From Candidatus Eiseniibacteriota bacterium (GTDB lineage: Bacteria > Arandabacterota > Arandabacteria > Arandabacterales > Arandabacteraceae), in contig JBDRNT010000011.1 of assembly GCA_043810925.1 (NCBI GenBank), positions 1-33,578 on the forward strand: a stretch of 33,578 nucleotides of DNA, read 5' to 3'. A model generated the notes under the pieces. The model searched no databases. It was not told the DNA's origin and saw only the letters and a program-made list of their open reading frames with translations. A program made the position numbers and the translations under genes. How positions within the stretch are numbered: position 1 is the stretch's first letter; each line of letters begins with the position of its first letter. Of the stretch, positions 1,962-18,876 are shown in pieces.

Positions 1962-4871
1962 TTACCTCGATACAACCACCTTGTTTACCAGAGACCCTCG
2001 AGTAGTCTCCAGTTTCACGAAATAAATCCCTGAGCTCACCCTGCCGCCATGCGTGTTGGTCCCGTCCCACTCATGCTTGTGGGCACCGGCATCCAGGTAC
2101 TTGTCGGTCAGGGTGCTTACGAGTTCGCCCTTGACGTTGTAGATCTTAAGGGCAACATGTCCCGATGTGGGGAGTGCGAAGTTAACGACTCCGCCGTTCA
2201 TCATGGGATTGGGCTTAACCAGCATCGCGAGATTCTGAGGGGCAACCGGTATGTCACCCGCCCCGGCCCTGCCGGCGGCGCAGATATCATCTATGTTCCG
2301 GGGCTCAATCATATGCTTGCTGTAGGAGAACATCATGACGCCTCGGACAAAGAGCACGCTCTCACTGAGTGTCGGGTCATAGTCATACCAGGAGTTATCA
2401 CCAACCGTGCAAGACGTGTCGGGCACCGTGTTACTGAGTTCCCACTCGCCGTAAGTGTTCTTCTCCGCGGTAACTGTGCCGTTGTTGACCTCAACCAGCA
2501 CGCCTTCATAGACTTCATTGCTGTCGATCATACCTGAGGTTACGGCGTAAGGTGCAGGGACCGTGTTGCCGGTCGAATGAACCGTGATGGCCTCCGGGAA
2601 AAACATGGCGATCTCGGTCTCCGTGTAGTACTCCCACACACCCCCCGATACCGTGACACTGTCGCCGCGCTCAAGCGTCACGCTACCCGTTCTTTCATAT
2701 ACCTTTACACCGTCGAAGTCAGGCTTATCCGCACCGCCGTAGGAGTTCTGGATGAAGAAGTAATACGGGTTGAGCTCACCCGGTGCGGCAGTGACAATAC
2801 CCGACACGTTGACCGGCTCGCCGGCATAGGTCGAGCTGTCGGCGGGCGGCGTGACGTTCTGGACCTGGTAGATCGTATTCATTCCCACACGGAAATCATA
2901 CGATCCCCCGGCCGGTTTGCGGGCGGAGAACCCATCCGCGTTCCAGGCCTCGACGTAGTAATCCACAACTGTCTGGTCAACTGCATACGGACCTATGTTC
3001 GCTGTATAGACGCTGTCCGGAGAGGTCATCACCGTGCTGTCCCAGTTGGCACCATTGTCAGTGCTGTGGAAGAGCTTGACTGAGAGTATACCGGCGTCAC
3101 TCAGTACCGTACCGCTCACCGTTATGACATCGGTCGTGGTCGGTACGTGGGGCGTATACCTGACCTCATAGATCCTGACCGGGCCCACGATGTCATCGTC
3201 ACTCCTGGGCTCAATCTTGTAAGTAGTGAACGAGTAGTAGCCGATGCCCTGGATCGAATCCAGTGAGTCTCCATCCTGAGGTACATAAGCATAATAAGCA
3301 GCATCATCGACGATGCACGAGCCTGAGCCGTCGTTTATCTCCCACTCGCCGTTTCCGAGGCTGTCTTCCGTGACGATTGCGCCTTCGATTCTTACCAGCA
3401 CACCCTCATAGCGCTCGGCAGTGGCCGAAGCCGTGTTAAGATCGCCGGTTGTGATAACGAAAGGATCGGGCAACCGGGCGCCGCTCTTGTGTTCCTGGTA
3501 GCAGTCGGTGAACATGTAGAGCTCCGTGACGTTGTAGTACTCACTTACAAAGCCGGAGATGGTAACACTGTCGCCCACCTCAGCCTGAACCGAATAGCTG
3601 GGATCGTATACGAAAATCCCCGACCACGGACCGCCATTGGGATCCTCGACCACAAAAATAGCATCGCTCAGGGGATAACCGAATCCCCCCCGGCTCACGG
3701 TCACGATGCCCTCGATGTTCTTAGCCTGGCCAAGAACGTAAGAAGAATCGTCAGCACCAAACACCTGCTGGATGCTGCTTATCGCCGTGGTACCGACCGA
3801 GTAGCCGTAGTCGTTGTTCGGGGCATCATCCGGTTCGTAGCCTGTCGCTCCCAGGTCATCGGTGATACGAACATAGAACCTGACCTGGTACTCGTCACCC
3901 TGCGCCGGCAGGTCGACTTCCCACTGGTTGGGTTCGGCCACAACCGGAGTCATGGCAACGCTGTCAAACGGTGTATCCAGGAAGTCGGGCGGAACCCGCA
4001 CGCTGTAAAAGCACTTGACCGCAGCGACCGTTCCGTCATCATCCTCCCCGTAGACGGTGATGGTGACCTGGTCGGTGTTTGACGGCACGCAAGGACTGTA
4101 CTGAAGACTGTAGCCATACGGGGGCAGGTTCGAAGTATTCTGGGCGCGCGGCGTAGGAGCCTGCTCTTCAAAATCGACCGAGCAGTCATCGGTGTCGGTA
4201 CCGACCGGAATCCGGCCCAGACTCACGCCTTCATCAGGATACCTTGGATAGGCATCATTGGTGCCGTTGACCCCCGCGCACGCGTCGGACGTGCAGCTTG
4301 ACTGGCGGTATTCGACCGCATCGATGAGATTGCTTCTCGTAGGCTCGTCATAAAGCCACAGGGCCTCGTAGCCGGTGAAGGTGCTCGGACACTTCATGCC
4401 ATAGTCACTCGTACCCGGGAAGAGCCTTATCTGATCGTCATAAGCATCCGGGTTCTGGCAGATCGTATCATCGACCCGCGGGTCCTGCGGTTCATAGACC
4501 TGGCTGCCATCATACATCTCGAGATCGGGCAGGAAACCGAATCTGGCCTCAAAGCCATCAACCTCAAGCACGTCCCTTGCTATTACGAAATAGCCGTAGG
4601 CGTCAATACCCTTGCCAGCCGGTATCTGATGATGATGCTCACCGCAAACCGCGTCATATTCGGTTCCCGAAAGCACCCATCCCGAGAGATCGATGTAACT
4701 GCCTGTTGTGTTATAGAGCTCGATAAACTCGGCATCGTCATAGTAGTCCGGGCTGTTGACCCAGATCTCGTTGATGACGACGTCACCGGCGCTTGCACCT
4801 AGCGCAACACCGGCTGAGAGACATACGACGAGCAAGGATAAGAATACCGCTGATGCACCACGACCGTACAT
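1962..4871 (-). CDS. Secreted multidomain protein: lamin-tail domain, Ig-like spacers, two double OB-fold (YhcR/ExeM-like) modules, FlgD-Ig/T9SS type A-like CTD
   Basis: Signal peptide. LTD motif VVINEI..N...EFIELYN...DLSGW. OB motifs GDSVT.SG.V.EYY..TE and YEGVLV...IEPR..DDI each occur twice. CTD reads KPNP...LKIYNVKGELV..L...WDGTN..G.RVSSGIYFVKL. Preceded by SD AAGGAGG. Confidence 0.85.
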   Translation of the reverse strand: MYGRGASAVFLSLLVVCLSAGVALGASAGDVVINEIWVNSPDYYDDAEFIELYNTTGSYIDLSGWVLSGTEYDAVCGEHHHQIPAGKGIDAYGYFVIARDVLEVDGFEARFGFLPDLEMYDGSQVYEPQDPRVDDTICQNPDAYDDQIRLFPGTSDYGMKCPSTFTGYEALWLYDEPTRSNLIDAVEYRQSSCTSDACAGVNGTNDAYPRYPDEGVSLGRIPVGTDTDDCSVDFEEQAPTPRAQNTSNLPPYGYSLQYSPCVPSNTDQVTITVYGEDDDGTVAAVKCFYSVRVPPDFLDTPFDSVAMTPVVAEPNQWEVDLPAQGDEYQVRFYVRITDDLGATGYEPDDAPNNDYGYSVGTTAISSIQQVFGADDSSYVLGQAKNIEGIVTVSRGGFGYPLSDAIFVVEDPNGGPWSGIFVYDPSYSVQAEVGDSVTISGFVSEYYNVTELYMFTDCYQEHKSGARLPDPFVITTGDLNTASATAERYEGVLVRIEGAIVTEDSLGNGEWEINDGSGSCIVDDAAYYAYVPQDGDSLDSIQGIGYYSFTTYKIEPRSDDDIVGPVRIYEVRYTPHVPTTTDVITVSGTVLSDAGILSVKLFHSTDNGANWDSTVMTSPDSVYTANIGPYAVDQTVVDYYVEAWNADGFSARKPAGGSYDFRVGMNTIYQVQNVTPPADSSTYAGEPVNVSGIVTAAPGELNPYYFFIQNSYGGADKPDFDGVKVYERTGSVTLERGDSVTVSGGVWEYYTETEIAMFFPEAITVHSTGNTVPAPYAVTSGMIDSNEVYEGVLVEVNNGTVTAEKNTYGEWELSNTVPDTSCTVGDNSWYDYDPTLSESVLFVRGVMMFSYSKHMIEPRNIDDICAAGRAGAGDIPVAPQNLAMLVKPNPMMNGGVVNFALPTSGHVALKIYNVKGELVSTLTDKYLDAGAHKHEWDGTNTHGGRVSSGIYFVKLETTRGSLVNKVVVSR

Positions 4872-4960: not shown

Positions 4961-4996
4961 CCAAAATCCAAGCCGTATCACAAGCGGGGCACAAGC

Positions 4997-5307: not shown

Positions 5308-5318
5308 CGGGGTAGGGT

Positions 5319-7001
5319 TTAGTGAGTGAGGTTTTCCAGGGGTATGAACCTCGGCAGTGCGTCCGTCAGTTCAGGAGTTACGGCGCGATCGTCATCCCTC
5401 ACTAACCTTCCCTCGATTCGGGGGGCAAGCGGGGAGTGACGCCTTACATAATCGATCACGGCCTCCTTGACCTGGATATCAGTACGGTGGACATACTCGG
5501 GATCGATCTCGGTCAGGATCTGAAGCCCTATGTTGCCGGCCGCAATGAAGTCCGTTGTGGCCACGCGGTAGATGCGGTCGGGATCCCAGGGTTCACCACC
5601 GACAGCAAGTGCGACGAGCCTGTCGAAGTCCGGGCGGGCCCGGCTGTAGGCCGCCTCTATCCCGGAGACATAGGCACCCTGTCTCATCCCCTTCACCCGC
5701 CACTCAAGCACGTGCTTAAGATACGAGCCGGTCATCTCGAAATAGACAAGTGTGTTCTCAAAAGGCACCGCCCGGAAAACATCCCGGGGTGTTATCACAC
5801 CCATTGCCAGGTTGGATCTTATACCGCCCAGGTTGGTGAACGCCACATCGGCGTCCACCGCTTCCCTCATCGCATCGGTGATCATGTTGCCCAGCTGCGA
5901 CTCACCGACACCGACCCTCGTGATATCAATCAGCGCCCTGCCTATCGGTTCATCCATTCCCACTTCAGCCGTATCGACCCATTCTTCGATAAACTCGGCC
6001 ACCTCGGCATCCGGCCAGTATTCATCCTCAAAGAGGCTTACTATCGAACCCCCGGATTCCGCAAGGTTATAGCCGACGATCTTCTTGGACCCGGGATCCA
6101 CCAGGATCTCGTACACCCCGACCCCGGTACCTCTGCCGTATGTCTGAAGGCAGATCGTATGGGTCAACGGGTCTTCCCAGCCTTGCTCCAAGCCCACATG
6201 TATGTGACCGCCGACCAGGAGATCGATACCGGGAACGTGATGAACGAGTTCCATGGCGTTCATTCCGTACCTGATTCTCTGCTCGACCCCGGTCTCGATC
6301 ATCTCCTTGTAGGCCGAGCGCACATCGTAGGGAATCCCGAGATGGGATATTACGAATATCAGATCAACCCGGCCCTTAAGCTCGGCGATGTATTTTTCGG
6401 TGACCGGCTTGACCTCAAGGAACTCCACGCGGCTCACCGTCTCCGGCAGCGAGTAGTACTCGGTCTCCTCGGTTATAAGACCGATGATGCCGATCCTCAC
6501 TCCTGCCACTTCCTTTATTATATAGGGTGTGGCCGGCGGGGGCAGACTACCGGTCTGTCTGTCAAGCAGGTTGGCGGCTACAACCGGGAACTCGGCCATC
6601 TCGATGAGTTTGAAGGCATTTTCGAGCCCCGCGTCGAACTCGTGGTTACCCGGCGCCCAGGCATCGTAACCCAGCCGGTTCATGAACTCGATCACGACCT
6701 CGCCGCCCTTGTAGTTCCCGACAGGGGACCCCTGCCAGATATCACCGGTGTCGAATAGGAGGAAGCCGTTTCCCTCCTTCTCGGCCTTCGCTCGCTGCGT
6801 CTTCACAAGCGTTGCCAATGATGCCCCCCCACCCAGCTGCGGCGGGAATTCCTCGTCCATGAAGGTCGCACCCTGCCTGTCGATGCCCCCGTGGACGTCG
6901 TTGGTATGCATAATCGTTATGTGTATGGGCTCGGCCCCGAACCCCACCGAGGCCAGAGCGGCAGTCAAGCACAGAGCCAGAATCATTACGTGTCTCATCA
7001 T
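5319..7001 (-). CDS. Periplasmic/secreted 5'-nucleotidase / 2',3'-cyclic phosphodiesterase (UshA/CpdB family)
   Basis: Signal peptide. Calcineurin-like motifs HTNDVHG, DTGD, GNHEFD, SHLG and GGHIH. C-terminal 5'-nucleotidase domain (ESQLGNMITDAMR..N.GGIRS..PFEN..YRVATTDF). Confidence 0.93.
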   Translation of the reverse strand: MMRHVMILALCLTAALASVGFGAEPIHITIMHTNDVHGGIDRQGATFMDEEFPPQLGGGASLATLVKTQRAKAEKEGNGFLLFDTGDIWQGSPVGNYKGGEVVIEFMNRLGYDAWAPGNHEFDAGLENAFKLIEMAEFPVVAANLLDRQTGSLPPPATPYIIKEVAGVRIGIIGLITEETEYYSLPETVSRVEFLEVKPVTEKYIAELKGRVDLIFVISHLGIPYDVRSAYKEMIETGVEQRIRYGMNAMELVHHVPGIDLLVGGHIHVGLEQGWEDPLTHTICLQTYGRGTGVGVYEILVDPGSKKIVGYNLAESGGSIVSLFEDEYWPDAEVAEFIEEWVDTAEVGMDEPIGRALIDITRVGVGESQLGNMITDAMREAVDADVAFTNLGGIRSNLAMGVITPRDVFRAVPFENTLVYFEMTGSYLKHVLEWRVKGMRQGAYVSGIEAAYSRARPDFDRLVALAVGGEPWDPDRIYRVATTDFIAAGNIGLQILTEIDPEYVHRTDIQVKEAVIDYVRRHSPLAPRIEGRLVRDDDRAVTPELTDALPRFIPLENLTH

Positions 7002-7011: not shown

Positions 7012-8319
7012 TCAGAGCCCCCTCGTGATCGATATCATGCCGCTGAAGGTCGTCTCTTCAACCAGATCCGCGAAGCCGCGCGACTCTGCACAGAAGAGGC
7101 CGTCATCAAAGAGGTCGAAGTGTCTGTATTCTCTCCACCCAACCCTGACAGATGCCTCTATACCCAGTCCGTATGTCGCGAAGCCACTTCCTATCGTGAA
7201 GGCCGTCTCACTGATCTCGTCATCGACGGGGCAACCCTTGTAGATAAAGCCAAAGCGTAGCGGCTGCTGATTGTAGAATACATGCTCCACGCCGATGTGC
7301 CACTCGTATATGTCCTCCAAACCGGCATCAACAAGAGCCTCATTACCGGCATCACTCCAGGTGGTGCACTTTACATCAGCCTCGATTACCGTCATGAGTT
7401 CGTTCCTCGGCCGGAATGTCACACCCAGCGCGTAGGAAGCCGGATACTTGACCTTGAACTCCCCACCCTCATCAGTAGCCCTGGGCAGGAACTCAAGCAG
7501 TCCCCCGACAGAACTCGTGCTGTAGTCGCCCGTAAGCTCACAGCCGGTCACCACCGATGCACCCATCTCAACCCTCTTGTTGATCTCGTAAGTCCCCCCT
7601 ACTCTCACCCTTATCCCATCTATATTGGATGACGTAAAGGTATCGGAGGTTTCCGTCCGGGGTTCGTCCCAGCACTGCACTTTGATCGTATCCACATCCG
7701 AGAGCCGGCCCGTAAGATCGAAATCGCCGAAGAGGTAATCAATACCGGCACCGATCGAGAACCCGTCTCCCACCGACGCGCCCATCCCAAAGGCCAGCGA
7801 GCTGATGCTTCCGCTGTCTTCGATAAATGCCTGTGCGATCACTTTGTCGGTCGGGACCGATGAAGTGCTCCTGTCCCGTACCTCCTCGTAGAAATCATAT
7901 GTGAAATCATAGACAGGTGCATAGGCACATCCAAACGATATCCCGAGGCCCTGGGGAACCACTCCCGAGCATAAGCCTATCGCACCACGGTGGTAGAGGT
8001 TGGAGTTTCTCGAGTACGTCGTGTACCCTAAGAGAGCGTCGAAGCTGTCATGCGCCGGGAACGACCAGTCCTCCTCGATCGAGTAGAAACGGTAGGTGCC
8101 CCCAACCATGGGGCGCCCGATCTTGCTCAGCAAAGCGGGGTTCTGAAGCACCGCAAACGGTGTCTCCTCACAGAGGAGCGCGACCTCTCCCATACCGGCA
8201 CATCTGCCCGATCCCGGAAAGACCTCCGACCCGAGACCGAGGTCGAGAAAGGTGTAACCCCACGAACACGTCGCCAACGCAAGAATCAGCAGCACACCTC
8301 CTGTTCCACCTCTCCTCAT
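7012..8319 (-). CDS. Outer-membrane beta-barrel, FadL/OmpP1/PorV superfamily
   Basis: Signal peptide. N-terminal hatch-like motif SGRCAGMGE...AVLQNPALL. Amphipathic beta-strands and the KYPASYALGV motif. Confidence 0.7.
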   Translation of the reverse strand: MRRGGTGGVLLILALATCSWGYTFLDLGLGSEVFPGSGRCAGMGEVALLCEETPFAVLQNPALLSKIGRPMVGGTYRFYSIEEDWSFPAHDSFDALLGYTTYSRNSNLYHRGAIGLCSGVVPQGLGISFGCAYAPVYDFTYDFYEEVRDRSTSSVPTDKVIAQAFIEDSGSISSLAFGMGASVGDGFSIGAGIDYLFGDFDLTGRLSDVDTIKVQCWDEPRTETSDTFTSSNIDGIRVRVGGTYEINKRVEMGASVVTGCELTGDYSTSSVGGLLEFLPRATDEGGEFKVKYPASYALGVTFRPRNELMTVIEADVKCTTWSDAGNEALVDAGLEDIYEWHIGVEHVFYNQQPLRFGFIYKGCPVDDEISETAFTIGSGFATYGLGIEASVRVGWREYRHFDLFDDGLFCAESRGFADLVEETTFSGMISITRGL

Positions 8320-8335: not shown

Positions 8336-10777
8336 CTACCACATGTAGTCGATTTGGATTCTGAAGTACTTCTCTTTGTTCATGATGTTCTCGGCATCGA
8401 TTTCACCGCCGTAATACTGGTTGTAACGTCTGACATCTGTATTGGTAACGGGGAGTCCCCTGTCATATGCAGCCTTGAGTTCAATCCAGAGGTTATCGGA
8501 AAGCCGGTCCTGTACCGAAACCCAGAACCTCATCGAATTCCTTTTATCACTGGCCACGAAATCGCTCTCCTCGAAGAACCAGAGAAAGCCGTTGTAGGAG
8601 AGCGCCCCGACGCTCACATTGAACTTGTCGGTGAAGTTGTGTATGGCGTGGAGAAGCAGTGCCCACGAGGGTTGGAACGCCTGGCCGGAGGCCGGGTGGT
8701 CACCGTCGGGTTCGACTCCGCCGACGAGCCTGGGTCTAGGCGGCCATTCGGTTCCACCTTTCAGATAAGTGAATTCAATCATGTCGTAATTGGACAGCCT
8801 CATCTCGAGCTCGAGCCGTGTGTCGGCCAGGCTGTAGCTCGTGGCCGTCAGTTCATCTGCCCGGTTCCGCCCCTGGTACTGCTGTCTTATCTTGAACCTG
8901 AGCGGATAGAGCAATCTGACTTCAAGATTGCCGACAAACCTGCTGTAGGTCGCCCCGTCGGATACCCTGGTCCAGCGGTCATACTCGATCCGCGGTATTA
9001 TCGAGGTGGTGAGCCTGTAACGGGTCGACAGGTATACGCCCCGTTCGGCCTGAGGGGCGACGCCATTATCAAAGATCAGGCCGTAAAGCGGATCGGTGAG
9101 ATAGTAGTGGTCCTCGAGAATCGTGCCCTTGAACCGTGCGTAGTTTGAAAACCCCCGGCAATAGGGATTGTCGAAACCCAGGTCATAGTCCCTGTAGAGC
9201 ACCAGGAAACTGAGGTTGTTGTACTGGGCCCACAGTGAGGAGACAAAAGCAGCAGGATCGTCACCAACCTTGAGCATGTTGCCGTTCACGTCCATCTCGG
9301 CGTACTCGGCCTGCACACAGTAGTTGTTGAACACGCTCTGCATCTCGACCCCAAAGACACGCCGGAACTTACCCGGACTCCGGTAGGACCGGAGGAACTC
9401 ATTGTCGGCCTGGATGATCCGGTCGGGCCTATCTATGATGGTCTCTCCACCCATAGGATCGAAGCGCCGGTTGTAGCGGCTTTCGTAACCCGTTACACCT
9501 ACATGCGAACCCGGGCGCAGAAGATAGCGGAGATTGCCCCCATAGGTCCTCTCATGGAGGGCGTCACGCATGGGGGGAAGTCCGTATTGGACCAGGGTTT
9601 CATTCTTTATAGCCGGGTTGAGCGAGATATAGGCGGCGGCAGAACCGTCCTCGTTGAGGACCACATCCTTCTCGTCGTCCGAATAAAAGCCGATTCCTTT
9701 GAAGTCCCGCCAGGTGGCCTGAACCGCGACGCCTGAGAGCTTGTACTCCTCAGACCGTGAGATATCGCCGAGTACGCCGTAGTAGCGCTTGTCCCAGGAG
9801 TAACCGGACTTCCTCGGCTTGAAGTAATCGCTGTTCTCCATCACGAGCCCCTGGCCGAACCCGACAAGATAGTCACCGACATAGACCTTGTCTATCAGCA
9901 CAGGGCCGAGCTTCAGTCCCTCCACACCCGCAAAGCCCTTCATGTGTTCGCCAAGGCTTTCCTCACCGCTTTGCCTCCACCCGAGCATGCCTCCCCTCAG
10001 AGTGACATCCCCGGTAAGATAGTACTTAAGGTAGAGTTTCTGGCTGACCTCGGGTCGCGACGCATAAAGACCGAGCCTGTCATACCATGAGTCATAGACA
10101 TTCTGAGCCGAGTACACATCCTCCTGCAGAAGCTCCACAACGTCCGAATGAAATTCTGTGCTCCTCGCCCTGACTTGATACCGGCCGTGAAGCTCACCCT
10201 TTTGCTCGGTACTCTGGTACTCGACAAGCGATCTCGCGTTCATGTAGCCCCAGCCTGAAAGACCGGGTGTATATCTCAGGTCCCGCCGGCTCCTGTAAGT
10301 CCCGATAGCAGTGCGATGCTTGAAGATTGCCACGGCGTCCACGGGTGAGACATTCTGGAGATTCATCAGGTCGTATACACCCGCGGTGTTTATGTTGGGC
10401 GGGTCCTTGGCTATGTCTATCCAGAGATCGATCAGACCCTCGTTGCTTCCCTCCGATGAGCCCCAGCTTCTGACGTTTCGCTGGGCGACGTTCATACGCT
10501 CGGCGAAGTAATCGATATCGACCGGCTCAATCCTGACAAGGGGTTTTAATATCTCAAGTTTGCCGGCATCGATTCCCGGGACCTTCATAAGATCATAAAC
10601 GCTCCCGAAGTATGATCTGAATTCCCTGTATTCATATACGGCCTGCGCATCCTCTGCGGAAAGCGGGAGCTCCATTATGTCCGCAAGCGGCGCAGAATTA
10701 AGATCGATGGGAAACTCAGCTGCCGACAGACCGCCGGCCGTTACCGTGAAAACCAATAAGAGCAACCATCGTCTCAT
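8336..10777 (-). CDS. Tandem ComEA-like helix-hairpin-helix domains fused to a predicted outer-membrane beta-barrel
   Basis: Signal peptide. HhH1 IDLNSA..DIMELP...A.AVYEYRE....FGSVYDLMKVPGI and HhH2 NINTAGVYDLMNL...AVAIFKHR....YRS..DL.YTPGL. Strand-rich remainder containing GDYLVGFGQGLV. Terminal FRIQIDYMW resembles a BAM beta-signal. Confidence 0.8.
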   Translation of the reverse strand: MRRWLLLLVFTVTAGGLSAAEFPIDLNSAPLADIMELPLSAEDAQAVYEYREFRSYFGSVYDLMKVPGIDAGKLEILKPLVRIEPVDIDYFAERMNVAQRNVRSWGSSEGSNEGLIDLWIDIAKDPPNINTAGVYDLMNLQNVSPVDAVAIFKHRTAIGTYRSRRDLRYTPGLSGWGYMNARSLVEYQSTEQKGELHGRYQVRARSTEFHSDVVELLQEDVYSAQNVYDSWYDRLGLYASRPEVSQKLYLKYYLTGDVTLRGGMLGWRQSGEESLGEHMKGFAGVEGLKLGPVLIDKVYVGDYLVGFGQGLVMENSDYFKPRKSGYSWDKRYYGVLGDISRSEEYKLSGVAVQATWRDFKGIGFYSDDEKDVVLNEDGSAAAYISLNPAIKNETLVQYGLPPMRDALHERTYGGNLRYLLRPGSHVGVTGYESRYNRRFDPMGGETIIDRPDRIIQADNEFLRSYRSPGKFRRVFGVEMQSVFNNYCVQAEYAEMDVNGNMLKVGDDPAAFVSSLWAQYNNLSFLVLYRDYDLGFDNPYCRGFSNYARFKGTILEDHYYLTDPLYGLIFDNGVAPQAERGVYLSTRYRLTTSIIPRIEYDRWTRVSDGATYSRFVGNLEVRLLYPLRFKIRQQYQGRNRADELTATSYSLADTRLELEMRLSNYDMIEFTYLKGGTEWPPRPRLVGGVEPDGDHPASGQAFQPSWALLLHAIHNFTDKFNVSVGALSYNGFLWFFEESDFVASDKRNSMRFWVSVQDRLSDNLWIELKAAYDRGLPVTNTDVRRYNQYYGGEIDAENIMNKEKYFRIQIDYMW

Positions 10778-10790: not shown

Positions 10791-11660
10791 CTAGAATACC
10801 GCTCTCAGGGACATGTGGTGTGTGCCCGGCAGAACCGTATGACTTGAGTACGAGTAGTCTACGGCTAATGGCTCAACACCGACCGTGAAGCCCCCCGTCA
10901 GCGAGTTGGGTTCGGTCTGGAAGCCGAACCTCATATCCAGAAATTCCGTCACATTAAACTGCATCCCCATGTGTATCTCGACGTCTTCCCCTCTTACACT
11001 TCTGATATCCAGCTCGGTAATTACACCGTAGTAGGGTTTGTATGCGATACCAGCGGTCAACCACTGAGGAAGCGGTTCCCTGTCGACCTTCCCCAGCGAC
11101 GGCTCATTAACATTCTTAAGAAAGAACCCCAGCATGGTCCGATCCCTTAAGATTGCGAGCATGCCGATGTCGATCCCGAAGGTCGTCTGGCTCCCGAGAT
11201 CCATCGTACCCGTTGATCCGAAATCAAGTGAGTAGATGTTGAGGCCGTAGCCGACATGAAGCGACGAGTGGATGTCCTTCATAAGTACCATCCCGTGCGC
11301 CACACTGAATGTCGACTCGCCCATGAGATCCTGACCGCCGAATTCGACACCAAAGCTGCGGTAGCTGACCGCGACGCCGTGCGACGGCCTGACAGGCATG
11401 CTCGCAGCAAGAAAGGTCAGGGATTCGAAGCTCTGAGAATTCGGCTTCAAGTACGACGCGCACACACTTCGGCCCGACACTCCTACCAGGCAAGCGGGGT
11501 TGTAGAATATCGCGGTGGCATCATCCGCACTGGCTATCCATGCTCCCGCCATACCCCTTGCCTTGCTGCTCACATCCACGGAATCGAAGACATAGGCAGT
11601 CGCCATACCTGCAATAAGAAACACCAAAACGGGCCAGAGAATTAGTCTAATGACTCGCAC
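10791..11660 (-). CDS. PorV/PorQ/PorP-like outer-membrane beta-barrel (T9SS-like accessory)
   Basis: Signal peptide. Motif SKARGMAGAWIASADDATAIFYNPACL. C-terminus DYSYSSHTVLPGTHHMSLRAVF with terminal Phe. 289 aa. Confidence 0.75.
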   Translation of the reverse strand: MRVIRLILWPVLVFLIAGMATAYVFDSVDVSSKARGMAGAWIASADDATAIFYNPACLVGVSGRSVCASYLKPNSQSFESLTFLAASMPVRPSHGVAVSYRSFGVEFGGQDLMGESTFSVAHGMVLMKDIHSSLHVGYGLNIYSLDFGSTGTMDLGSQTTFGIDIGMLAILRDRTMLGFFLKNVNEPSLGKVDREPLPQWLTAGIAYKPYYGVITELDIRSVRGEDVEIHMGMQFNVTEFLDMRFGFQTEPNSLTGGFTVGVEPLAVDYSYSSHTVLPGTHHMSLRAVF

Positions 11661-11672: not shown

Positions 11673-14597
11673 CTACTTTAGCTCGATACCCACGACGATC
11701 GGTACGCTTTCAGTCGTCCTTCTGCCGGTAACTGACTCCGTGACCTCAAGGAAACAGATGTAAAGACCCGGGGCGACCATCCTGCCCTCATCGTCTTTAC
11801 CATCCCATCTGATCTCACGGTCCCCGAGGCTCGTACCACTATAGAGCGTTGCCACACTTCTGCCGGCCGCGTCAAACAGCCTCAGGACGACATCGCTCAA
11901 TGATTCTCCACCAAACCGTATACTGAATCCATCCTCTCCGCAAGACGGACAGAACACGCGCGCATCGACATCGAGTCTTGCCTCATCGGGAAATGCACCT
12001 TCGATTATCTCGATGTCACTGTCATACCTGGGGACGAGCTCGTAGCTCTCGAGGAATGGACGTGTGTAGTCGTACTGAAGAACGACACCTTTGACTCTCG
12101 CATACATTCCCACTTTGAAGCGGGTGAAGTCTATCGGCAGGTAGTTCTGGTAAACCTGTATGCCGCCTGTCCCATCGTCAATGAAGAAGTCGAAGTCGGA
12201 GGTGCTAATGATCGCTCCCTCCGTCTGGACAAGTCTCCCCTCATTTATCTCACGTCCGACATCACCGGTCTTCAGGATCACGGGATCCGGTTCCGGATAG
12301 CCACGCGAAAGAATTGTGACCCGGGGACTGGGTGACATGTAAATCTCGGTGGTACTACCCGCGGTACCCACGTATTCCGTTACATCTCCGCTGACCGTGA
12401 CGAAATCACCAATGACCGGAGCAGGGTTGGGTACGTCATAGGAAAACACATTGACCCCACATCCGTCCAGGCCCTGGACGTAAAGTGAGGAGTACTCCTC
12501 CTGGAACACACCTGGCGGTACGGTGATAAAACCCATCGTGAACACGGCAGTGTCCCTCACGGGTGAGAATCCGTACTCGTCGTATGCCTGTATCGTGCAC
12601 ACTCTCATGGCGGCGCTGGATGTGATCGATAGGGTGACCACCGTATCTTCCATGGCCTGATTGAACTTGCTTTTCAGGTTCGCAACTTCAAGCCTCGCAG
12701 CACCGGGCAGGACATCATCGAACAGAAGAAGCACCTTCTCCCCCGATGCCGAAGGATAGGCCTTTACGGCAGCCGGACAGCCCTCGTGCCGCCCACACAA
12801 CTGGAAATTCCCCGGATCGGCGAGCGCCGACACAGCCATGCCTTCGCTGAAAAAGACCTCCACAATGTCTGTCGCGTGGGACATCACCTTGTCAACAACC
12901 GGGGCCCTGTAATCAAAGATGTTCTCCGCACCGGGAGTTGGAACCGCCGTCAGCGAAGCCGGCGGATTCTCCGGTATATGGTCCAGGCCGGTCGCCAGTG
13001 CGTAGCCTGCAGGCGGGATCTGGGGAAAAGCGCTCGCCATAAAATCATCACACATATCCGTGGGGCATGCTACTCCATCCTTATACTCGATATAGTCTAC
13101 AAGATCGCTCAGCGAGGCGTCCCGCCAGAACGAGATCACCTCGTATGTTTCGGCACCGCCGCACAGCCCCCCATCGCCCCCCACTCTCCCGAGCGGGCTT
13201 ATGGCCGCTTCAATCGCCCCATCATAATCGAACCGCTCACCGAAGCCGGCAGATGATTCGACCAGGACAAGATATTCATCCGGAGCGAGCGTGTCGGCCG
13301 GCCCGAACACGTGACGCACATCCGTGTCGCATATGGAAACAGCCCGCTGTTCACAAATGGCATAACCCTCGAGATAGGCTGTCGAGCTGCCCGTGTTGTG
13401 AAGCTCGATAAACGCATTACTCCCCGAGGTCGTCCCGTCATCCGGAAAGACCTCGGTGATATAAACACCAGGAATGGGGTAGACTGCCTTAAGCGCGGGC
13501 AGAAGGCTGATGTCCTTAAATGTTGTCCCATCGACCGAGGTTCTCACCGTTACCTGCGAGGATACAAGACCTGCGGGCGGGGCCACGTTTTTAAGAGTAA
13601 CCGAACCGTATGAAACATCCCCGTCCCAGACAGCGCATGATTGCACTGCTACGCCGCTTGCCGTTACATCATACGTGGCACCCGACAACCCCGGGCCTGA
13701 GAGCACAACATTCCCGGCCCCACCTTCCCAGCTCCACCCGTCTGCGAGCGGGAGGTCGACGGAAAACGCCGTAATGGTATCCTGCTCATTACCCGCAAGC
13801 GTCACGACGAGATCGAATGACGGCAGATCGTTATCGACCGACGAAGGCTCCAGAACCACGATTCCGCTTCCACTTCCCACGGCGAGCACGTCCTCATATC
13901 TCGATCGCGGCCAGACGGTATAGTCGGACAGGTACGGGTACTTCCGGTCGTTCTGGACGACAACGCCGATCACGGTAAATGGGCCGTCCGGTTCCGGGGT
14001 GCCGCCGATATCTGTGTCTCCGTCTATCCTGAGGGTGAAACTGCCGGTCGCATCCTCCACGGTGAGGTCCCGATTGGTACCCGGACTCGTCGGCCAGTCG
14101 CCGCCTGTAATTCCAACATTTTGGACTCTCACGAGGGCACCCTCGTAAGGTTCAAACGGCGGTGCGGAAGTCGCAGTAACCTCACTCGCGGTGAGCAGAA
14201 CGGGCTCAGGAACGGTGCCCTTTCCAACAACCTTTATGTCTTCGAGACGACCGACATTGAGGCGTATCGTACCCGCGTTGGGACTGCTGAAACTCAAACT
14301 GACCGCCCCGGTCACGACCACGCTGTCACCAAGTCTTAACCTGATGCCTTTAAGAGTGCGGGTGTACAGATTGATCCCGCCGGTCTTATCCTGGATGTAA
14401 GCATCAAGTGAACTCAACTCGCCGCTGAAGATACCGCTCCCGGTCGTTACGACTCCCGTGACTGTAACGGTCGTGCCGTCCAGTTCGGAATCTCCCCCGC
14501 TGTCTATCTCTTTGGCCTCTTCTATCGTGATCACCGCACCGTTCGCGGTGAACGCAACAAGCAAGAGCACAAGCCAGGCACCACAAACACGCATCAC
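11673..14597 (-). CDS. Secreted protein: double OB module, Ig-like region, lamin-tail domain, Ig-like domain, double OB module, variant FlgD-like CTD
   Basis: Signal peptide. GTTVTVTGVVT..YIQD.TGGI..LGDSVVVTG and YEGALVRV..VWPR. LTD VYITEVFPD..FIELHN. Second OB pair ends LVPRYDSDI. CTD reads FCPSC...LRLFDAAGRSVATL...WDGKD..G....PGLY. Confidence 0.82.
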   Translation of the reverse strand: MMRVCGAWLVLLLVAFTANGAVITIEEAKEIDSGGDSELDGTTVTVTGVVTTGSGIFSGELSSLDAYIQDKTGGINLYTRTLKGIRLRLGDSVVVTGAVSLSFSSPNAGTIRLNVGRLEDIKVVGKGTVPEPVLLTASEVTATSAPPFEPYEGALVRVQNVGITGGDWPTSPGTNRDLTVEDATGSFTLRIDGDTDIGGTPEPDGPFTVIGVVVQNDRKYPYLSDYTVWPRSRYEDVLAVGSGSGIVVLEPSSVDNDLPSFDLVVTLAGNEQDTITAFSVDLPLADGWSWEGGAGNVVLSGPGLSGATYDVTASGVAVQSCAVWDGDVSYGSVTLKNVAPPAGLVSSQVTVRTSVDGTTFKDISLLPALKAVYPIPGVYITEVFPDDGTTSGSNAFIELHNTGSSTAYLEGYAICEQRAVSICDTDVRHVFGPADTLAPDEYLVLVESSAGFGERFDYDGAIEAAISPLGRVGGDGGLCGGAETYEVISFWRDASLSDLVDYIEYKDGVACPTDMCDDFMASAFPQIPPAGYALATGLDHIPENPPASLTAVPTPGAENIFDYRAPVVDKVMSHATDIVEVFFSEGMAVSALADPGNFQLCGRHEGCPAAVKAYPSASGEKVLLLFDDVLPGAARLEVANLKSKFNQAMEDTVVTLSITSSAAMRVCTIQAYDEYGFSPVRDTAVFTMGFITVPPGVFQEEYSSLYVQGLDGCGVNVFSYDVPNPAPVIGDFVTVSGDVTEYVGTAGSTTEIYMSPSPRVTILSRGYPEPDPVILKTGDVGREINEGRLVQTEGAIISTSDFDFFIDDGTGGIQVYQNYLPIDFTRFKVGMYARVKGVVLQYDYTRPFLESYELVPRYDSDIEIIEGAFPDEARLDVDARVFCPSCGEDGFSIRFGGESLSDVVLRLFDAAGRSVATLYSGTSLGDREIRWDGKDDEGRMVAPGLYICFLEVTESVTGRRTTESVPIVVGIELK

Positions 14598-15664
14598 TTG
14601 AGTCTTCTCCCTATTACGATCGGTACCGTTTCTTCTGTCTTATCACCGGTCACAGGATCCGTTGCGGTCGCGACCACGTGATAAAGTCCCATCGGCAGGC
14701 GCTCCATGAGCTCATTTCGCCCGTCCCACTCGAAATCAGCTTCGCCGCATGCGGTTATATGGTCTTCAAGCGTTGCCACACATCTGCCCGAGACATCGAA
14801 GATCCTCAATTTCGCCCGCCCGCCGTTCGGGCCGTTGAATCTGATCTTCACTTTGTTGTAGGGCCGGGGACACTCCGGACAGAAAATGTTGGCTCTATCA
14901 CCGTTGATGTCGGTTATCTCAAGCAGAACTCGCGCTGTCACGGTATCGGGAGTACAGCGTGGTCCCACGACATCGTCGTACGGCGGAGCGGGACTTCTGG
15001 GCCAGATGCTGTAATCACTCAAGTAGGGAGGCGAGGGATCGTACTGCGAGACGACTCCACGCGCGGTCACCTTATCCCCGAAGAAGAGCTCCTGCCAACC
15101 TGGGCTCGTGGTAAACGTCCCGGCCCGATCATGGATCTCTATCTGGCCTGTCCCATCATCGACGAATATCGATTCAAGTCCATCCTTACCTACGACCCTG
15201 CCCGTAACCTGTACAAACATCCCTTCATGCTCTTCGCGGCCCACCGCACCGGTCGACATAAGTGTGGGCTCGGGAAATATGTCCGAATTCCGGACGATGA
15301 TTTCACCCGTAAGCTCGGCGATCTCCGTGGTCGCTCCCGCGGTCCCGGCATACTCAAGAACGTTGCCGGTCACGGTTATCGTATCGCCCAGAGACAGCCC
15401 GGGAATGGGATCAAACGAGAACACATTGATCCCGCAGGAGTCACTACCGAGACCCCGTATGAAGATCGATGTGAAGTCAGGTACAAAGAACCCCGGCGGG
15501 ACGGTCACAATACCTGTGACGGTGACCCTGCTGCCGGTCAGAGGCGAGAATCCCGATGCATCATAGGCCTGTACTTCACAGATCGTTGTCGCCCGGGCGG
15601 GTTGGAATATCAAGATCACCAGAAATAGCGACAAAAAAACGAGTCCTGCCTGATGACTCCTCAC
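14594..15664 (-). CDS. Secreted protein: one double OB module plus variant FlgD-like CTD (paralogous to the C-terminal third of the 11673-14597 protein)
   Basis: Signal peptide. ICEVQAYDASGFSP..G..TVPPGFF matches VCTIQAYDEYGFSP..G.ITVPPGVF in the neighbour. CTD reads FCPEC...WDGRN...VPIVIGRRLK. GTG start after AAGGAG; ATGA overlap with the downstream gene. Confidence 0.82.
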   Translation of the reverse strand: MRSHQAGLVFLSLFLVILIFQPARATTICEVQAYDASGFSPLTGSRVTVTGIVTVPPGFFVPDFTSIFIRGLGSDSCGINVFSFDPIPGLSLGDTITVTGNVLEYAGTAGATTEIAELTGEIIVRNSDIFPEPTLMSTGAVGREEHEGMFVQVTGRVVGKDGLESIFVDDGTGQIEIHDRAGTFTTSPGWQELFFGDKVTARGVVSQYDPSPPYLSDYSIWPRSPAPPYDDVVGPRCTPDTVTARVLLEITDINGDRANIFCPECPRPYNKVKIRFNGPNGGRAKLRIFDVSGRCVATLEDHITACGEADFEWDGRNELMERLPMGLYHVVATATDPVTGDKTEETVPIVIGRRLK

Positions 15665-15689: not shown

Positions 15690-15718
15690 ATGCTACTATA
15701 AACGATGGTACAAGTCAA
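15690..15718 (-). promoter_or_regulatory. Putative internal sigma70 promoter for the 15664-5319 sub-operon
   Basis: TTGACT-17 bp-TAGCAT in the only 50-bp gap of the operon. Confidence 0.45.
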
Positions 15719-17052
15719 CTACTGGTGCCAAGACCCAGCTTCTGTTGAAGCCGCTTGAGCCGTCCGATTTCTGCGTTACCCTTTGCCGCCGCCCTGTCAA
15801 GCGCCTCCCCAATATCAGCATCACCCCTGAGCACCGCTTCGACCGCCCGCTCCGCAAGATATCTCCTGCCGGCATACCAGCCCGCAATCTTGGGCTCGAA
15901 GCTTGCGTACTCGAGTTGATTGAATGCATCTCTTAAGCCCGGGAATTCCTCAAACCTGGCCATCAGCGTATCCGTTTCAAAAGCGCTCCACCTGACCGGC
16001 GCGTAGAAAGTACCGGCGGCCCAGCGCGCCGTCTGGTCCGTGTCGGTGAACCACTTGATGAACTCCCACGCTGCTTCCTGTTCCCGCCTGGTTGACTCTG
16101 AGAAGATCACGACATTGGTACCCGCAATCGTCACACCGTCGATCTTGCCCGCCGGCAGGGGTGCAACGCCGAGCTCAAAATCGTATTTGCCCTGTACGAA
16201 CGCAAGCGAGACCGTTGAGCCTTCCATCATTCCGACCTTCTCGGCAAGGAAGTCGTTCTGATATTCATAGCCCGCCGCAATGAAGCCGACGCTGTCGGCA
16301 AGCAGTTTCTTCATAAAAGCGAGTGCCTCGACGCCCTCGCGCCGGTTAAAGATGACTTCCTGCGTCGCAGGGTCAAGGAAGCGGCCGCCGTTTTGAAGCA
16401 GGAGGTTCCCGAACATCCAGACGTTGACCTGCCCCGCCGTTCCCCAGATCTCCGGGAACCCGTCACCGTCATCATCCCGGGTGATCTTTCTGGCGAATCC
16501 TATGTAGTCGTCCCAGGTGCGGGGCGGTGTGTCGCGGTCAAGACCCGACCGCTCGAAAAGGTCCTTGTTGTAGAAAAGGGTTCTCACGCTCTTGTTAAAT
16601 GGAAATGACCATATCACACCGTCCCACTGGTTGTTCCTGATGAAGACCGGCAGTATGTCCGCCAGACTCTCTTCACTCAGTCCGTTGGGTCCCCTGACGA
16701 AGTCTTCGATCGGCACTATGCTGCCGCTTATGATCAGTTCCACCGTCCAGTTTTCGTAGGCCTGGGCCATCACGGGCGGCTTTCCGGCCGCAACCGCGGC
16801 CATTATCTTCTGGCTGAGTGCGTTGTACTGCCCCATCGACACAGAGACAATCTCTATGTCCGGATGTGTGGCGTTAAACTCATCTATCAGACTGGTAAGC
16901 ACCCTGCCCAGTGGTCCACCCATCCCATGCCAGAACGTTACCTTGACGACGCCGCTGTCATCCGTGCTTCGCGAGCACGTCACCAGCATGAGAAGGCAAG
17001 CGACGAGGATTACCCTCGCCGACACGCTATCCCTTAATCCCGCTCTTAGCAT
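15715..17052 (-). CDS. CUT1 ABC transporter substrate-binding lipoprotein (UgpB-like)
   Basis: Lipobox-like LVTC. Motifs VTFWHGMGG, FPFNKS..LFYNKDLF, PPRTWDD, AAWEFIKW and WAAGTFYAP. The true start may be the GTG near 17025. Confidence 0.9.
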   Translation of the reverse strand: MLRAGLRDSVSARVILVACLLMLVTCSRSTDDSGVVKVTFWHGMGGPLGRVLTSLIDEFNATHPDIEIVSVSMGQYNALSQKIMAAVAAGKPPVMAQAYENWTVELIISGSIVPIEDFVRGPNGLSEESLADILPVFIRNNQWDGVIWSFPFNKSVRTLFYNKDLFERSGLDRDTPPRTWDDYIGFARKITRDDDGDGFPEIWGTAGQVNVWMFGNLLLQNGGRFLDPATQEVIFNRREGVEALAFMKKLLADSVGFIAAGYEYQNDFLAEKVGMMEGSTVSLAFVQGKYDFELGVAPLPAGKIDGVTIAGTNVVIFSESTRREQEAAWEFIKWFTDTDQTARWAAGTFYAPVRWSAFETDTLMARFEEFPGLRDAFNQLEYASFEPKIAGWYAGRRYLAERAVEAVLRGDADIGEALDRAAAKGNAEIGRLKRLQQKLGLGTSS

Positions 17053-17863: not shown

Positions 17864-17876
17864 CGAGCAGGTCCTC

Positions 17877-18854: not shown

Positions 18855-18876
18855 CGGGGCCTTGCTCCTTGGCAAA

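Follow-up and report, generated by a model that had tools for sequence, protein, structure and literature searches.

In sediments and in the ocean, much phosphorus, nitrogen and carbon is stored in extracellular DNA. To our knowledge, two routes for DNA across the outer membrane have been described so far, the pilus/secretin route and the TonB-dependent transporter of the Ddb and Riemerella systems (2021−2025). In a study of DNA-degrading sediment bacteria, nucleases and periplasmic nucleotidases were listed, and the accessible part of that text left the outer-membrane step unnamed and contained none of the terms 'ComEA', 'helix-hairpin' and 'outer membrane' (PMC8289736).

The described systems closest to the present locus are ddbABCDEF of Bacteroides and RA0C_RS04915/04920 of Riemerella. 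According to the accessible parts of the two reports, a surface protein of the DUF5689 type and an outer-membrane protein are encoded there together with exported nucleases or phosphoesterases and importers, an application of polysaccharide-utilisation-locus logic to DNA (PMC12478041, PMC8459023). The outer-membrane conduit of the ddb system is given as the TonB-dependent transporter DdbC, capped by the lipoprotein DdbD (PMC12478041). DdbD and RA0C_RS04920 both belong to DUF5689, a family that has been tied to DNA use and transformation (PMC12478041, PMC8459023); in the sections available, its members are described as essential for transformation in Riemerella (PMC8459023). The transformation of Riemerella anatipestifer likewise needs an HhH-domain protein, which is a separate protein there.

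A window of 33,578 nucleotides was analysed, which is the whole stretch of contig JBDRNT010000011.1 from a Candidatus Eiseniibacteriota bacterium. It encodes an 813-aa protein with two HhH modules and a large beta-rich domain. With a confidence only a little above even, we propose that this protein serves as the conduit through the outer membrane in a DNA-scavenging locus that has no TonB-dependent transporter gene and is analogous to the Bacteroides ddb loci. The conserved cluster around it probably serves the capture, cutting and import of environmental DNA as food. Owing to the conserved neighbours, the link of the protein to DNA is much stronger than could be seen in the initial annotation, which was made from the letters of this DNA and their reading frames. 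The genes of the locus were as follows:

18877..20130, minus strand: 417-aa lipoprotein (lipobox present) whose MBL domain resembles the nuclease domain of ComEC and has the motif HNHGDH
15715..18908, minus strand: UgpB-like binding lipoprotein and two ABC permeases
11673..14597, minus strand: 974-aa surface protein with DUF5689, LTD, an OB-fold and a FlgD_ig-type T9SS C-terminal domain
14594..15664, minus strand: 356-aa paralogue with one OB/ExeM-N-like module and a T9SS C-terminal domain
10791..11660, minus strand: PorV/PorQ-like small barrel of 289 aa (NCBIfam PorV_fam, 48.4 bits against a cut-off of 90)
8336..10777, minus strand: open reading frame of the 813-aa HhH/outer-membrane protein (stop codon at 8336−8338)
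7012..8319, minus strand: FadL/BamG-like barrel of 435 aa (Pfam Toluene_X, 35.9 bits)
5319..7001, minus strand: exported UshA-like 5'-nucleotidase of 560 aa (Pfam 5_nucleotid_C and Metallophos; DVH and GNHE motifs)
1962..4871, minus strand: 969-aa surface protein that combines LTD and a T9SS C-terminal domain with the N-terminal, non-catalytic portion of ExeM/NucH

All ten genes between 20130 and 5319 share one strand and are spaced by −32 to +50 bp, and a gap of 447 bp precedes the gene of the 969-aa surface protein. Rfam models revealed no regulatory RNA in the locus, and the promoter and terminator scans remained at or below the shuffled expectation. Among public sequencing runs, none was listed that covers 5319−14597, and none with RNA. 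The PADLOC defence models matched neither the 813-aa protein nor its neighbours, except for generic MBL similarities at 18877−20130.

The surface proteins and the MBL lipoprotein are linked to known proteins of DNA handling. The gene of the 974-aa protein is located two genes upstream of the 813-aa gene, and its DUF5689 match stood just above the cut-off (28.7 against 28.6 bits; 30.8 bits in a second scan). The OB-like modules of this protein were aligned to the module preceding Endonuclease_1 in a 926-aa secreted nuclease of the host (E values of 1e-8 and 9e-5). The secreted, LTD-type Endonuclease I proteins of the host are encoded outside the locus and carry the same OB, DUF5689 and LTD modules as the surface proteins of the locus. 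The 969-, 974- and 356-aa proteins matched ExeM/NucH in its non-catalytic N-terminal part only, and no recognisable DNase was found in the host locus besides the MBL lipoprotein. The latter covered positions 434−655 of TIGR00361 with 76.9 bits and kept the HxHxDH motif; nuclease activity of the ComEC MBL-type domain is reported in the accessible text of PMC8579336. A third DUF5689-like protein was noticed on a short contig (C13).

Compared with the ddb systems, the Pfam domains of a TonB-dependent transporter of the DdbC type (plug and carboxypeptidase-regulatory) occurred in none of the proteins of the cluster; instead, a Pfam-less family with fused HhH modules stands between two FadL-type barrels. 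T9SS C-terminal domains are found on the surface proteins, which are not lipoproteins, and the hosts belong to FCB-type phyla other than Bacteroidota.

The arrangement of a large outer-membrane protein encoded with small FadL-type barrels also recalls SprA-PorV (PDB 6h3i) and, in the part of the report available, BamA-BamG (PMC12611786), although no similarity of the 813-aa protein to SprA or BamA was detected. The profile of the 289-aa family matched PorV (6h3i_F) with an E value of 4e-4. The 435-aa barrel scored 70 bits against the BamG model, under the cut-off of 250, while its family profile matched 9hiv_F at 1e-15, followed by TbuX, TodX, FadL and BamG (9n2d_B). The locus would also be a testable case of FadL-type barrels acting as adaptors in a machine other than BAM or T9SS. 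The initial annotation had considered that homologs could be general structural parts of T9SS, and this was not supported: the SprA of the host (SprA_N) is encoded on another contig (C37), only the 289-aa neighbour resembles PorV, at a score under the cut-off, and the 813-aa gene travels with nucleotidase and nuclease genes and not with the T9SS core.

The open reading frame annotated at 8336−10777 on the minus strand was present as described. In an ungapped comparison of 813 codons with its relative in locus L001, 566 codons were identical, 187 differed synonymously only and 60 changed the amino acid; the row of L002 was left out, since an indel shifts its register. At E ≤ 0.001, 181 relatives were found in one protein collection and 734 in another. 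Because the codon changes were mostly synonymous and the relatives numerous, it was concluded that this is a real gene under purifying selection. Members were found in 16 of the 18 genomes of the host phylum, and the earlier description of the family as FCB-wide and uncharacterised held: it is widespread in FCB-type phyla, and no paper on it was found in a literature search. Feature look-alikes of the 813-aa protein in the ESM Atlas came from clusters of WOR-3, Cloacimonadota, Fidelibacterota and Bacteroidota.

The 79 loci in which synteny was followed represent six or more FCB-type phyla and come from genomes titled Eisenbacteria, Zixibacteria, Gemmatimonadota, KSB1, Marinimicrobia, Calditrichota and Ignavibacteria; the conservation of the family across the first five of these and their allies includes abundant marine and sediment lineages. 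The PorV-like gene stood directly upstream of the large-protein gene in 62 of 64 loci and the FadL-like gene directly downstream in 61 of 67, with the 5'-nucleotidase gene within 3.5 kb downstream (49/53) and the UgpB-like gene within 8 kb upstream (28/44). In all nine host-phylum genomes that had both genes on one contig, the gene of the MBL lipoprotein heads the operon, on the strand of the large-protein gene and about 8 kb upstream of it.

When 11 distant loci were scanned, the genes upstream of the PorV-like gene contained OB-fold, LTD or DUF5689 in ten; there was none in L071, and in L030 and L058 the adjacent gene was unmatched or matched LTD only. Some of these upstream genes, or their neighbours, also matched a T9SS C-terminal domain. 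Locus L053 encodes an Endonuclease_1 protein with a T9SS domain, and both L053 and L065 encode Metallophos-EEP fusions and a further EEP gene. One clade (L046, L050, L057, L063 and L070) had no FadL-like gene; the nucleotidase was missing as well from L046, L050 and L063, the downstream flanks of L057 and L070 being too short to judge. Locus L071 had none of the partners. If it acts on DNA as proposed, the HhH/outer-membrane family would be a third type of component for DNA in the outer membrane.

The 813-aa protein itself was divided into the following parts:

10718..10777, minus strand: signal peptide, aa 1 to about 20 (by eye; N-terminus MRRWLLLLVFTVTAGGLSAAEF)
10523..10711, minus strand: HhH module 1 (HHH_3), aa 23−85, with a degenerate hairpin 1 containing Glu/Asp
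10406..10522, minus strand: acidic linker conserved in the family alignment, aa 86−124
10214..10405, minus strand: HhH module 2 (HHH_3), aa 125−188, the most conserved stretch of the N-terminal region
8339..10195, minus strand: beta-rich domain like that of outer-membrane proteins, a presumed barrel, aa 195−813, without a Pfam family
8339..8368, minus strand: C-terminal signal of the outer-membrane protein type, with alternating hydrophobic residues and a terminal W

The initial annotation had placed two HhH/ComEA repeats at about 10717−10530 and 10400−10210 behind a signal peptide, and both elements were recovered. The N-terminus looked like a signal peptide by eye, and by a simple hydrophobicity rule 39 of the 42 aligned relatives (taken from the 181) began with a basic and then hydrophobic stretch. 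Pfam HHH_3 was matched with 64.7 bits (cut-off 27) in two stretches, at 10532−10711 and 10256−10396, and two such modules were present in all 42 aligned members. In the same alignment, the linker had a mean net charge of −4.6, an invariant E109 and near-invariant G110, L115 and D121, and in module 2 the residues N130, A132, Q141, P145, D147, A148, A150, L167, G177, Y178, N180, R182 and Y187 were invariant. One relative had TPR repeats of a periplasmic type fused ahead of an HhH module.

Both modules resemble ComEA (TIGR01259/TIGR00426; PDB 8dss, 8dfk, 2duy), being 32−34% identical to the HhH domain of the host ComEA (32% for module 1, E value of 3e-8). However, the scores were under the NCBIfam cut-offs of TIGR01259 (37.8 against 152.35 bits) and TIGR00426 (28.6 against 53.1 bits), and whereas ComEA is a small protein, free or membrane-anchored, the modules here are tethered to a predicted membrane domain of about 620 aa. 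Beyond HHH_3 and ComEA, nothing in Pfam or NCBIfam matched the protein. Among solved structures, the family profile was best matched by the eukaryotic EEPD1 (PDB 9yi2), which has tandem HHH_3-type modules (E value of 1.8e-13, two stretches). In EEPD1 the modules are joined to an EEP nuclease domain; in the 813-aa protein they precede the predicted membrane domain, and the partner nucleases or phosphoesterases have genes of their own.

The hairpins of the modules were found to be degenerate. The canonical hairpin model PF00633 was matched by none of the 42 members at E ≤ 0.001; in controls, it matched the host ComEA at 1e-13 and canonical multi-HhH proteins at 3e-43 to 4e-61. Alignment to the host ComEA showed that hairpin 1 has no G-x-G turn in either module and that the T-R positions of ComEA are occupied by E42-D43 in module 1 and by V146-D147 in module 2, with D147 invariant. 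By the motif register given in the accessible part of PMC3879209, these pairs would correspond to K62/K63 of Vibrio cholerae ComEA, where K63E abolishes transformation. Due to this degeneration, DNA binding by both modules is uncertain. The built-in ratchet suggested by the initial annotation found no support in such hairpins, and the host owns ComEA, ComEC, secretins and a pilus ATPase besides; moreover, two tethered modules would not be able to coat DNA as free ComEA does. The net charge of the modules (−4 and +3) was tried as an indicator of DNA binding and dropped, as canonical ComEA-type domains were equally acidic in the control (+1, −4, −6 and 0). Folds like HHH_3 also occur in proteins whose role is not in DNA binding, such as PsbU and the T2SS protein K. 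The canonical ComEA of the host weakly matched the Pfam models of these two proteins.

The region following the modules had been described as a barrel of about 620 aa built of amphipathic strands. This was confirmed in part: the region has a beta-rich character and features of an outer-membrane protein, whereas only about half of the beta segments were clearly amphipathic. A crude propensity scan of the alignment gave 21 beta segments after residue 190, and no hydrophobic helix followed the signal peptide (the maximum Kyte-Doolittle mean over 19 residues was 1.03). Residues 195−813 contained 14.5% aromatic residues and 8.9% Gly. The protein ends in ...FRIQIDYMW, in agreement with the aromatic end (IQIDYMW) noted initially; of 245 family sequences, 235 end in an aromatic residue (W in 135, F in 97 and Y in 3).

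Mean-field coevolution was computed from 225 sequences (effective number of 138) over 624 columns; the addition of 64 metagenome sequences raised the effective number to 140. Among short-range ladders, antiparallel ones outnumbered parallel ones (28 against 8 at scores above 12, and 12 against 0 above 14). The map was noisy, with local hairpins visible and a signal of barrel closure absent. At E ≤ 10, the beta domain had no match in a Pfam scan, and its profile, used by itself, matched the sequence of no solved structure; no internal duplication was found within the domain (hhalign probability of 0.1%). Two long, very conserved and non-amphipathic blocks (aa 306−345 and 525−580) could plug or narrow the presumed pore. 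In the proposed reading, aa 195−813 would form a closed barrel with a passable lumen, and the HhH modules would be periplasmic and bind nucleic acid.

The following path of scavenging was proposed from the gene content. The T9SS-secreted surface proteins with OB, DUF5689 and LTD modules (974, 356 and 969 aa) would capture DNA at the cell surface, where their probable anchors are the PorV-like and FadL/BamG-like barrels that flank the large protein, in an arrangement modelled on PorV with SprA and BamG with BamA. The DNA would be cut by secreted nucleases, which in the host would be the LTD-Endonuclease I proteins encoded elsewhere and in other phyla the Endonuclease I or EEP nucleases encoded within the locus. 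The large beta domain would then let fragments or nucleotides across the outer membrane, and the N-terminal HhH modules in the periplasm may receive the incoming chain or dock enzymes. The ComEC-type MBL lipoprotein and the 5'-nucleotidase would break the material down, with hydrolysis giving direction to the uptake, and the products would be taken up by ABC importers. Domain content, synteny and shared modules were observed directly, whereas we infer which barrels touch each other and what the substrate is.

A bolder version, to which we assign low confidence, is that the 813-aa protein is a TonB-free translocon for DNA polymers. In it, a wide barrel would be gated by its own conserved inner loops, a canopy of OB-fold proteins delivered by T9SS would rest on the two FadL-type barrels, and, on the periplasmic side, the tethered modules derived from ComEA would hand the chain over to a free-standing nuclease of the ComEC type and to the nucleotidase. 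If true, this would be a second, pilus-free route for DNA chains across the outer membrane of diderms, widespread in uncultured FCB-type phyla and feeding catabolism and, in some lineages, ComEC.

An unlikely alternative to the conduit is that the large protein is a scaffold, a hub that anchors the canopy of T9SS-secreted DNA binders and enzymes through the two FadL-type barrels, with the HhH modules as periplasmic docking sites; digestion would take place outside and the products would enter through ordinary porins. In solved FCB complexes, FadL-type barrels indeed serve as adaptors of surface proteins (BamG-BamA-BamH, in the text available of PMC12611786), and the PorV-like and BamG-like neighbours are near-fixed partners. 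The combination of degenerate hairpins with an invariant surface of module 2 suggests a protein partner, and the conserved non-amphipathic blocks could fill the lumen. However, the exported 5'-nucleotidase and the MBL lipoprotein have ordinary signal peptides without a T9SS tail, which points to arrival of the substrate in the periplasm. In addition, a barrel of about 620 aa is big for a mere anchor, and no other dedicated outer-membrane transporter was identified in the 12-gene cluster.

It is quite improbable that the protein is a competence channel, passing transforming double-stranded DNA into the periplasm for ComEC with the HhH modules as a receptor or ratchet. The modules are of the ComEA type, a copy of the ComEC nuclease domain is present in the locus, transformation of Riemerella requires DUF5689 proteins, and L071 has a ComEC gene on the same strand, 4.4 kb further downstream. 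This was, however, the sole ComEC adjacency among the 11 distant loci scanned, hairpin 1 is acidic at the DNA-binding positions of ComEA as given in the accessible part of PMC3879209, and the constant partners are catabolic (nucleotidase, nucleases) and would destroy transforming DNA. Furthermore, a canonical ComEA with a neighbouring PilB-like ATPase is encoded elsewhere in the host genome, as are a ComEC and three secretins, and secretins were found in all five other family-carrying genomes. The 813-aa protein is thus an extra system and not a stand-in for a missing route, and the pilus-independent route proposed at first was not upheld.

A role outside nucleic acids, be it for another phosphorylated or anionic polymer or metabolite (nucleotide sugars, glycerophosphodiesters, lipid A-related compounds) or in envelope biogenesis, was considered very unlikely. 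In its favour, the ABC binding protein is UgpB-like (glycerol-phosphate type) rather than of a nucleoside-binding type, UshA-type enzymes split UDP-sugars too (by their NCBIfam name), a paralogous barrel is paired with a YaeI/LpxG-like phosphoesterase and the Pfam LptD barrel model had no match in the host genome. Against it, the OB-fold, DUF5689, ExeM-N and LTD modules also occur in true DNases of the host, and Endonuclease I and EEP nucleases are encoded within distant loci. As the LptD barrel model matched only 2 of 14 control genomes, its silence in the host means little, and the idea of an LptD analogue was set aside because of a 1171-aa LptD_N frame elsewhere in the host (C151).

The paralogous barrel belongs to a distant system of the host that echoes the logic of the 813-aa locus. 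It consists of an LTD-CTD protein, a PorV-like barrel (hhalign 97.7%), a metallophosphoesterase and a barrel with a single HhH module (hhalign 96.9%). Since the phosphoesterase is YaeI/LpxG-like, it need not act on nucleic acid. Its gene was found directly upstream of the single-HhH barrel in 15 of 15 genomes.

The gene of the HhH protein, which carries two HHH_3 modules followed by a beta domain (residues 195-813), was found within a row of ten minus-strand genes running from 20130 to 5319 with intergenic gaps of -32 to +50 bp. On balance, it was considered somewhat likely that this protein is the outer-membrane conduit of a DNA-scavenging locus. The genes are given below in operon order, followed by two that lie past a 447-bp gap.

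18877-20130, minus strand: MBL lipoprotein, 417 aa, matched by TIGR00361 (positions 434-655, 76.9 bits)
next, minus strand: two ABC permease genes
next, minus strand: UgpB-like binding lipoprotein
next, minus strand: proteins of 356 aa and 974 aa with DUF5689/ExeM-N-like OB modules, LTD and a FlgD_ig-type T9SS C-terminal domain
next, minus strand: PorV/PorQ-like barrel, 289 aa
8336-10777, minus strand: HhH protein, 813-aa ORF
next, minus strand: FadL/BamG-like barrel, 435 aa
next, minus strand: exported UshA-like 5'-nucleotidase
past the gap: 969-aa protein with LTD, an ExeM/NucH N-terminal part and a T9SS domain
also past the gap: 276-aa exported protein

The gap (4872-5318), between the nucleotidase and 969-aa genes, contained the region's top-ranking promoter-like site (10/12 matches, minus strand, 4960-4932); overall, such sites were no more frequent in the region than in shuffled sequence.

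The HhH family comprised 181 relatives at E <= 0.001 when 8000 candidates of one collection were scored, nearly all of 810-880 aa, and a library clustered at 50% identity yielded 734 at E <= 0.001 and 102 at E <= 1e-30. Close relatives came from genomes labelled Candidatus Eisenbacteria. Within the phylum of the window the family was present in single copy in 16 of 18 genomes, two matches in one of them (G018) being counted once as halves of a gene split across two contigs; the remaining two genomes, which lacked the family, were 96% complete and came from a different taxonomic family of the phylum. Purifying selection is acting on the HhH gene. In an ungapped comparison of its 813 codons with the relative at L001, 566 were identical, 187 differed synonymously only and 60 changed the amino acid, the corresponding numbers against L010 being 247, 364 and 202. 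The relative at L002 was excluded because an indel shifted its register. A literature search found no paper on the family.

With each species represented by a single genome, 315 pattern matches were obtained, of which 305 were relatives, and the 79 best loci were analyzed. They were labelled Eisenbacteria, Zixibacteria, Gemmatimonadota, KSB1, Neomarinimicrobiota/Marinimicrobia, Calditrichota and Ignavibacteria, with a few other automatic labels. Neighbours were counted only at those of the best 79 loci of 305 that had enough flanking DNA. A PorV-like gene was located directly upstream of the HhH gene in 62 of 64 loci, the misses being one split alignment and the Calditrichota locus L071. A FadL-like gene was the immediate downstream neighbour in 61 of 67 loci. 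In 49 of 53, a 5'-nucleotidase followed within 3.5 kb, and in 28 of 44 a UgpB-like binding protein was encoded no more than 8 kb upstream. The missing partners were distributed non-randomly: the FadL-like gene was absent from a clade of five loci (L046, L050, L057, L063 and L070), as was the nucleotidase from the three of these that could be assessed (L046, L050 and L063; the flanks of L057 and L070 were too short), and all five kept the OB-fold surface protein and the PorV-like gene. In the phylum of the window the MBL lipoprotein is the fixed head of the operon, encoded ~8 kb upstream in the same orientation in each of the nine genomes with both genes on one contig (own genome included); in 2 of 5 more distant genomes it was found 3-4 kb past the end of the locus. 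Its MBL domain is similar to the nuclease domain at the C-terminus of ComEC, with HNHGDH intact. The lipoprotein represents a free-standing copy of this domain with a beta-rich N-terminal extension.

The signal peptide proposed in the initial annotation appeared likely by eye and was found by a simple rule in 39 of 42 aligned relatives. The aromatic ending noted there also held, as the C-terminal signal F-R-I-Q-I-D-Y-x-W closed with an aromatic residue in 235 of 245 family members. Residues 195-813 had no Pfam match even at E <= 10 and, searched as a profile alone, no relative by sequence among solved structures at E <= 10. A propensity scan placed 21 beta segments in this region, very few indel sites were observed, and the composition of the region was 14.5% aromatic and 8.9% Gly; no hydrophobic helix was present beyond the signal peptide. 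These features fit an outer-membrane protein. The ~620 aa of amphipathic strands of the initial annotation were confirmed in part; the long, highly conserved blocks at residues 306-345 and 525-580 were non-amphipathic and may be loops folded into the lumen. The coevolution analysis was underpowered, with 138 effective sequences for 624 columns. Even so, antiparallel ladders outnumbered parallel ones at short range (28 vs 8 at a score >12, 12 vs 0 at >14), and long-range ladders showed no such excess (22 vs 20). This pattern agrees with an up-and-down beta meander and does not demonstrate a closed barrel. A scaffold that transports nothing was regarded as the best of the alternatives and still unlikely. 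It was also observed that one relative, P0180 (1251 aa), carries ~400 aa of TPR repeats fused N-terminally to the HhH module, an arrangement that agrees with a periplasmic N-terminal region.

The two HhH/ComEA repeats were recovered where they had been placed, as two HHH_3 matches at 10532-10711 and 10256-10396 (64.7 bits against a cut-off of 27), and HHH_3 matched 42 of 42 aligned family members. Among solved structures the family profile matched HhH-domain proteins only, namely EEPD1 (9yi2) and ComEA (8dss, 8dfk, 2duy). The protein fell far short of the NCBIfam ComEA cut-offs, and none of the 42 aligned members matched the classical hairpin model PF00633 at E <= 0.001; as controls, the 126-aa ComEA of the own genome scored 1e-13 and canonical multi-HhH proteins 3e-43 or better. 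By BLASTP the modules were 32% and 34% identical to this ComEA, whose hairpin LPSIGPTRAGAI had LP-LSAEDAQAV (module 1) and LQNVSPVDAVAI (module 2) as its aligned counterparts. In both modules the G-x-G turn was gone and Glu/Asp stood instead of Thr-Arg; D147 was invariant in the family alignment. By motif register, the Glu/Asp sites would correspond to K62/K63 of Vibrio cholerae ComEA, in which K63E or K62/63A is reported to abolish transformation and K62/63A to abolish DNA binding in vitro (PMC3879209). A glycine was kept in hairpin 2 (PGID in module 1, PGLSGWGY in module 2), and module 2 had arginines on its flanks and was extremely conserved. By these comparisons, the modules are not ordinary ComEA domains. 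The net charge of the modules was dropped as an argument against DNA binding because canonical control domains were just as acidic.

A recognisable catalytic nuclease domain was absent from all three surface proteins (356, 974 and 969 aa). Elsewhere in the own genome Endonuclease_1 gave four matches, on contigs C178 and C70 and in two proteins composed of LTD, an OB-like module, Endonuclease_1 and a T9SS sorting domain:

G000:C89:2784-5564 (locus L171): secreted nuclease, 926 aa
G000:C49:342-3080 (locus L172): secreted nuclease, 912 aa

In the 926-aa protein, the stretch preceding the nuclease domain could be aligned with each of the two OB-like modules in the 974-aa protein (E 1e-8 and 9e-5); therefore, the surface proteins of the locus are built from modules that the organism attaches to true secreted DNases. 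A Pfam scan of 51 flanking proteins from 11 distant loci found OB-fold, LTD or DUF5689 in genes upstream of the PorV-like gene at 10 loci, L071 excepted; at L030 and L058 the gene directly adjoining it had no match or LTD only. An Endonuclease_1 protein with a T9SS domain was among the flanking genes at L053, and Metallophos-EEP fusions followed by a second EEP gene occupied the nucleotidase position at L053 and L065. A substrate other than nucleic acid was considered very unlikely.

A second, parallel system was found on another contig of the own genome (G000:C15:1-6239, locus L088). Upstream of its barrel gene lie the first three of the following:

576 aa: LTD protein with a T9SS tail
292 aa: PorV-like protein (hhalign 97.7%)
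263 aa: membrane-anchored YaeI/LpxG-like metallophosphoesterase
645 aa: a single HHH_3 module plus a beta domain remotely related to the HhH family (hhalign 96.9%, E 1.3e-10)

The phosphoesterase gene was directly upstream of the single-HhH barrel in all 15 phylum genomes where both were found. A paralogous locus thus repeats the set of T9SS LTD protein, PorV-like barrel, metallophosphoesterase and HhH barrel, which speaks for their being a functional unit. The subfamily has distant relatives as far as a Gracilimonas protein (23% identity), and a look-alike cluster of 664 aa in the Atlas was commonest in Bacteroidota.

A competence channel was also judged very unlikely. In its favour, ComEC is encoded 4.4 kb downstream of the HhH barrel (14931-17237) and in the same orientation at locus L071, where a SPOR-domain gene lies upstream and the usual partners are all absent. 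The own genome encodes a canonical ComEA adjoining a PilB-type ATPase, ComEC and three secretins, and all 5 of the other family-carrying genomes examined had secretins as well; hence the HhH protein is no stand-in for a missing pilus route. Nor is it the T9SS translocon, since SprA is present, and it is probably not LptD, an LptD_N frame of 1171 aa being present as well.

Among systems described so far, the nearest are the ddb loci of Bacteroides and the transformation genes of Riemerella, where a TonB-dependent transporter is capped by a DUF5689 protein and accompanied by nucleases (PMC12478041; PMC8459023); only these two papers were found linked to DUF5689. A DUF5689/OB surface binder, exported hydrolases and importer logic are common to both, whereas the HhH cluster lacks a TonB-dependent transporter and has the HhH protein and two FadL-type barrels instead. 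In the main text of a study of DNA-degrading sediment bacteria the terms ComEA, helix-hairpin and outer membrane did not occur (PMC8289736). In solved FCB machines the FadL-type barrels PorV and BamG bind the main barrel and hold surface proteins (PMC12611786). We proposed by analogy that the two small FadL-type barrels would hold T9SS-delivered DNA binders over the HhH protein as the conduit. The direction of uptake would be set by periplasmic hydrolysis rather than by the built-in ratchet of the initial annotation, because two tethered, degenerate HhH modules cannot coat DNA like free ComEA.

Other features of the window were a group II intron running off its start (3-980, minus strand; RVT_1 reverse transcriptase ORF 3-656, Rfam group-II D1-D4 RNAs at 692-773 and 809-980), a fused M16 peptidase of 910 aa divergent from the MBL gene (20189-22921, plus strand) and an ABC importer of two BPD_transp_2 permeases and a double-ATPase subunit (26147-29602, minus strand), beside which no binding-protein gene was seen. 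Such an architecture is usual in sugar or nucleoside uptake. A tricorn-type protease of 1102 aa was located at 29792-33100 on the minus strand.
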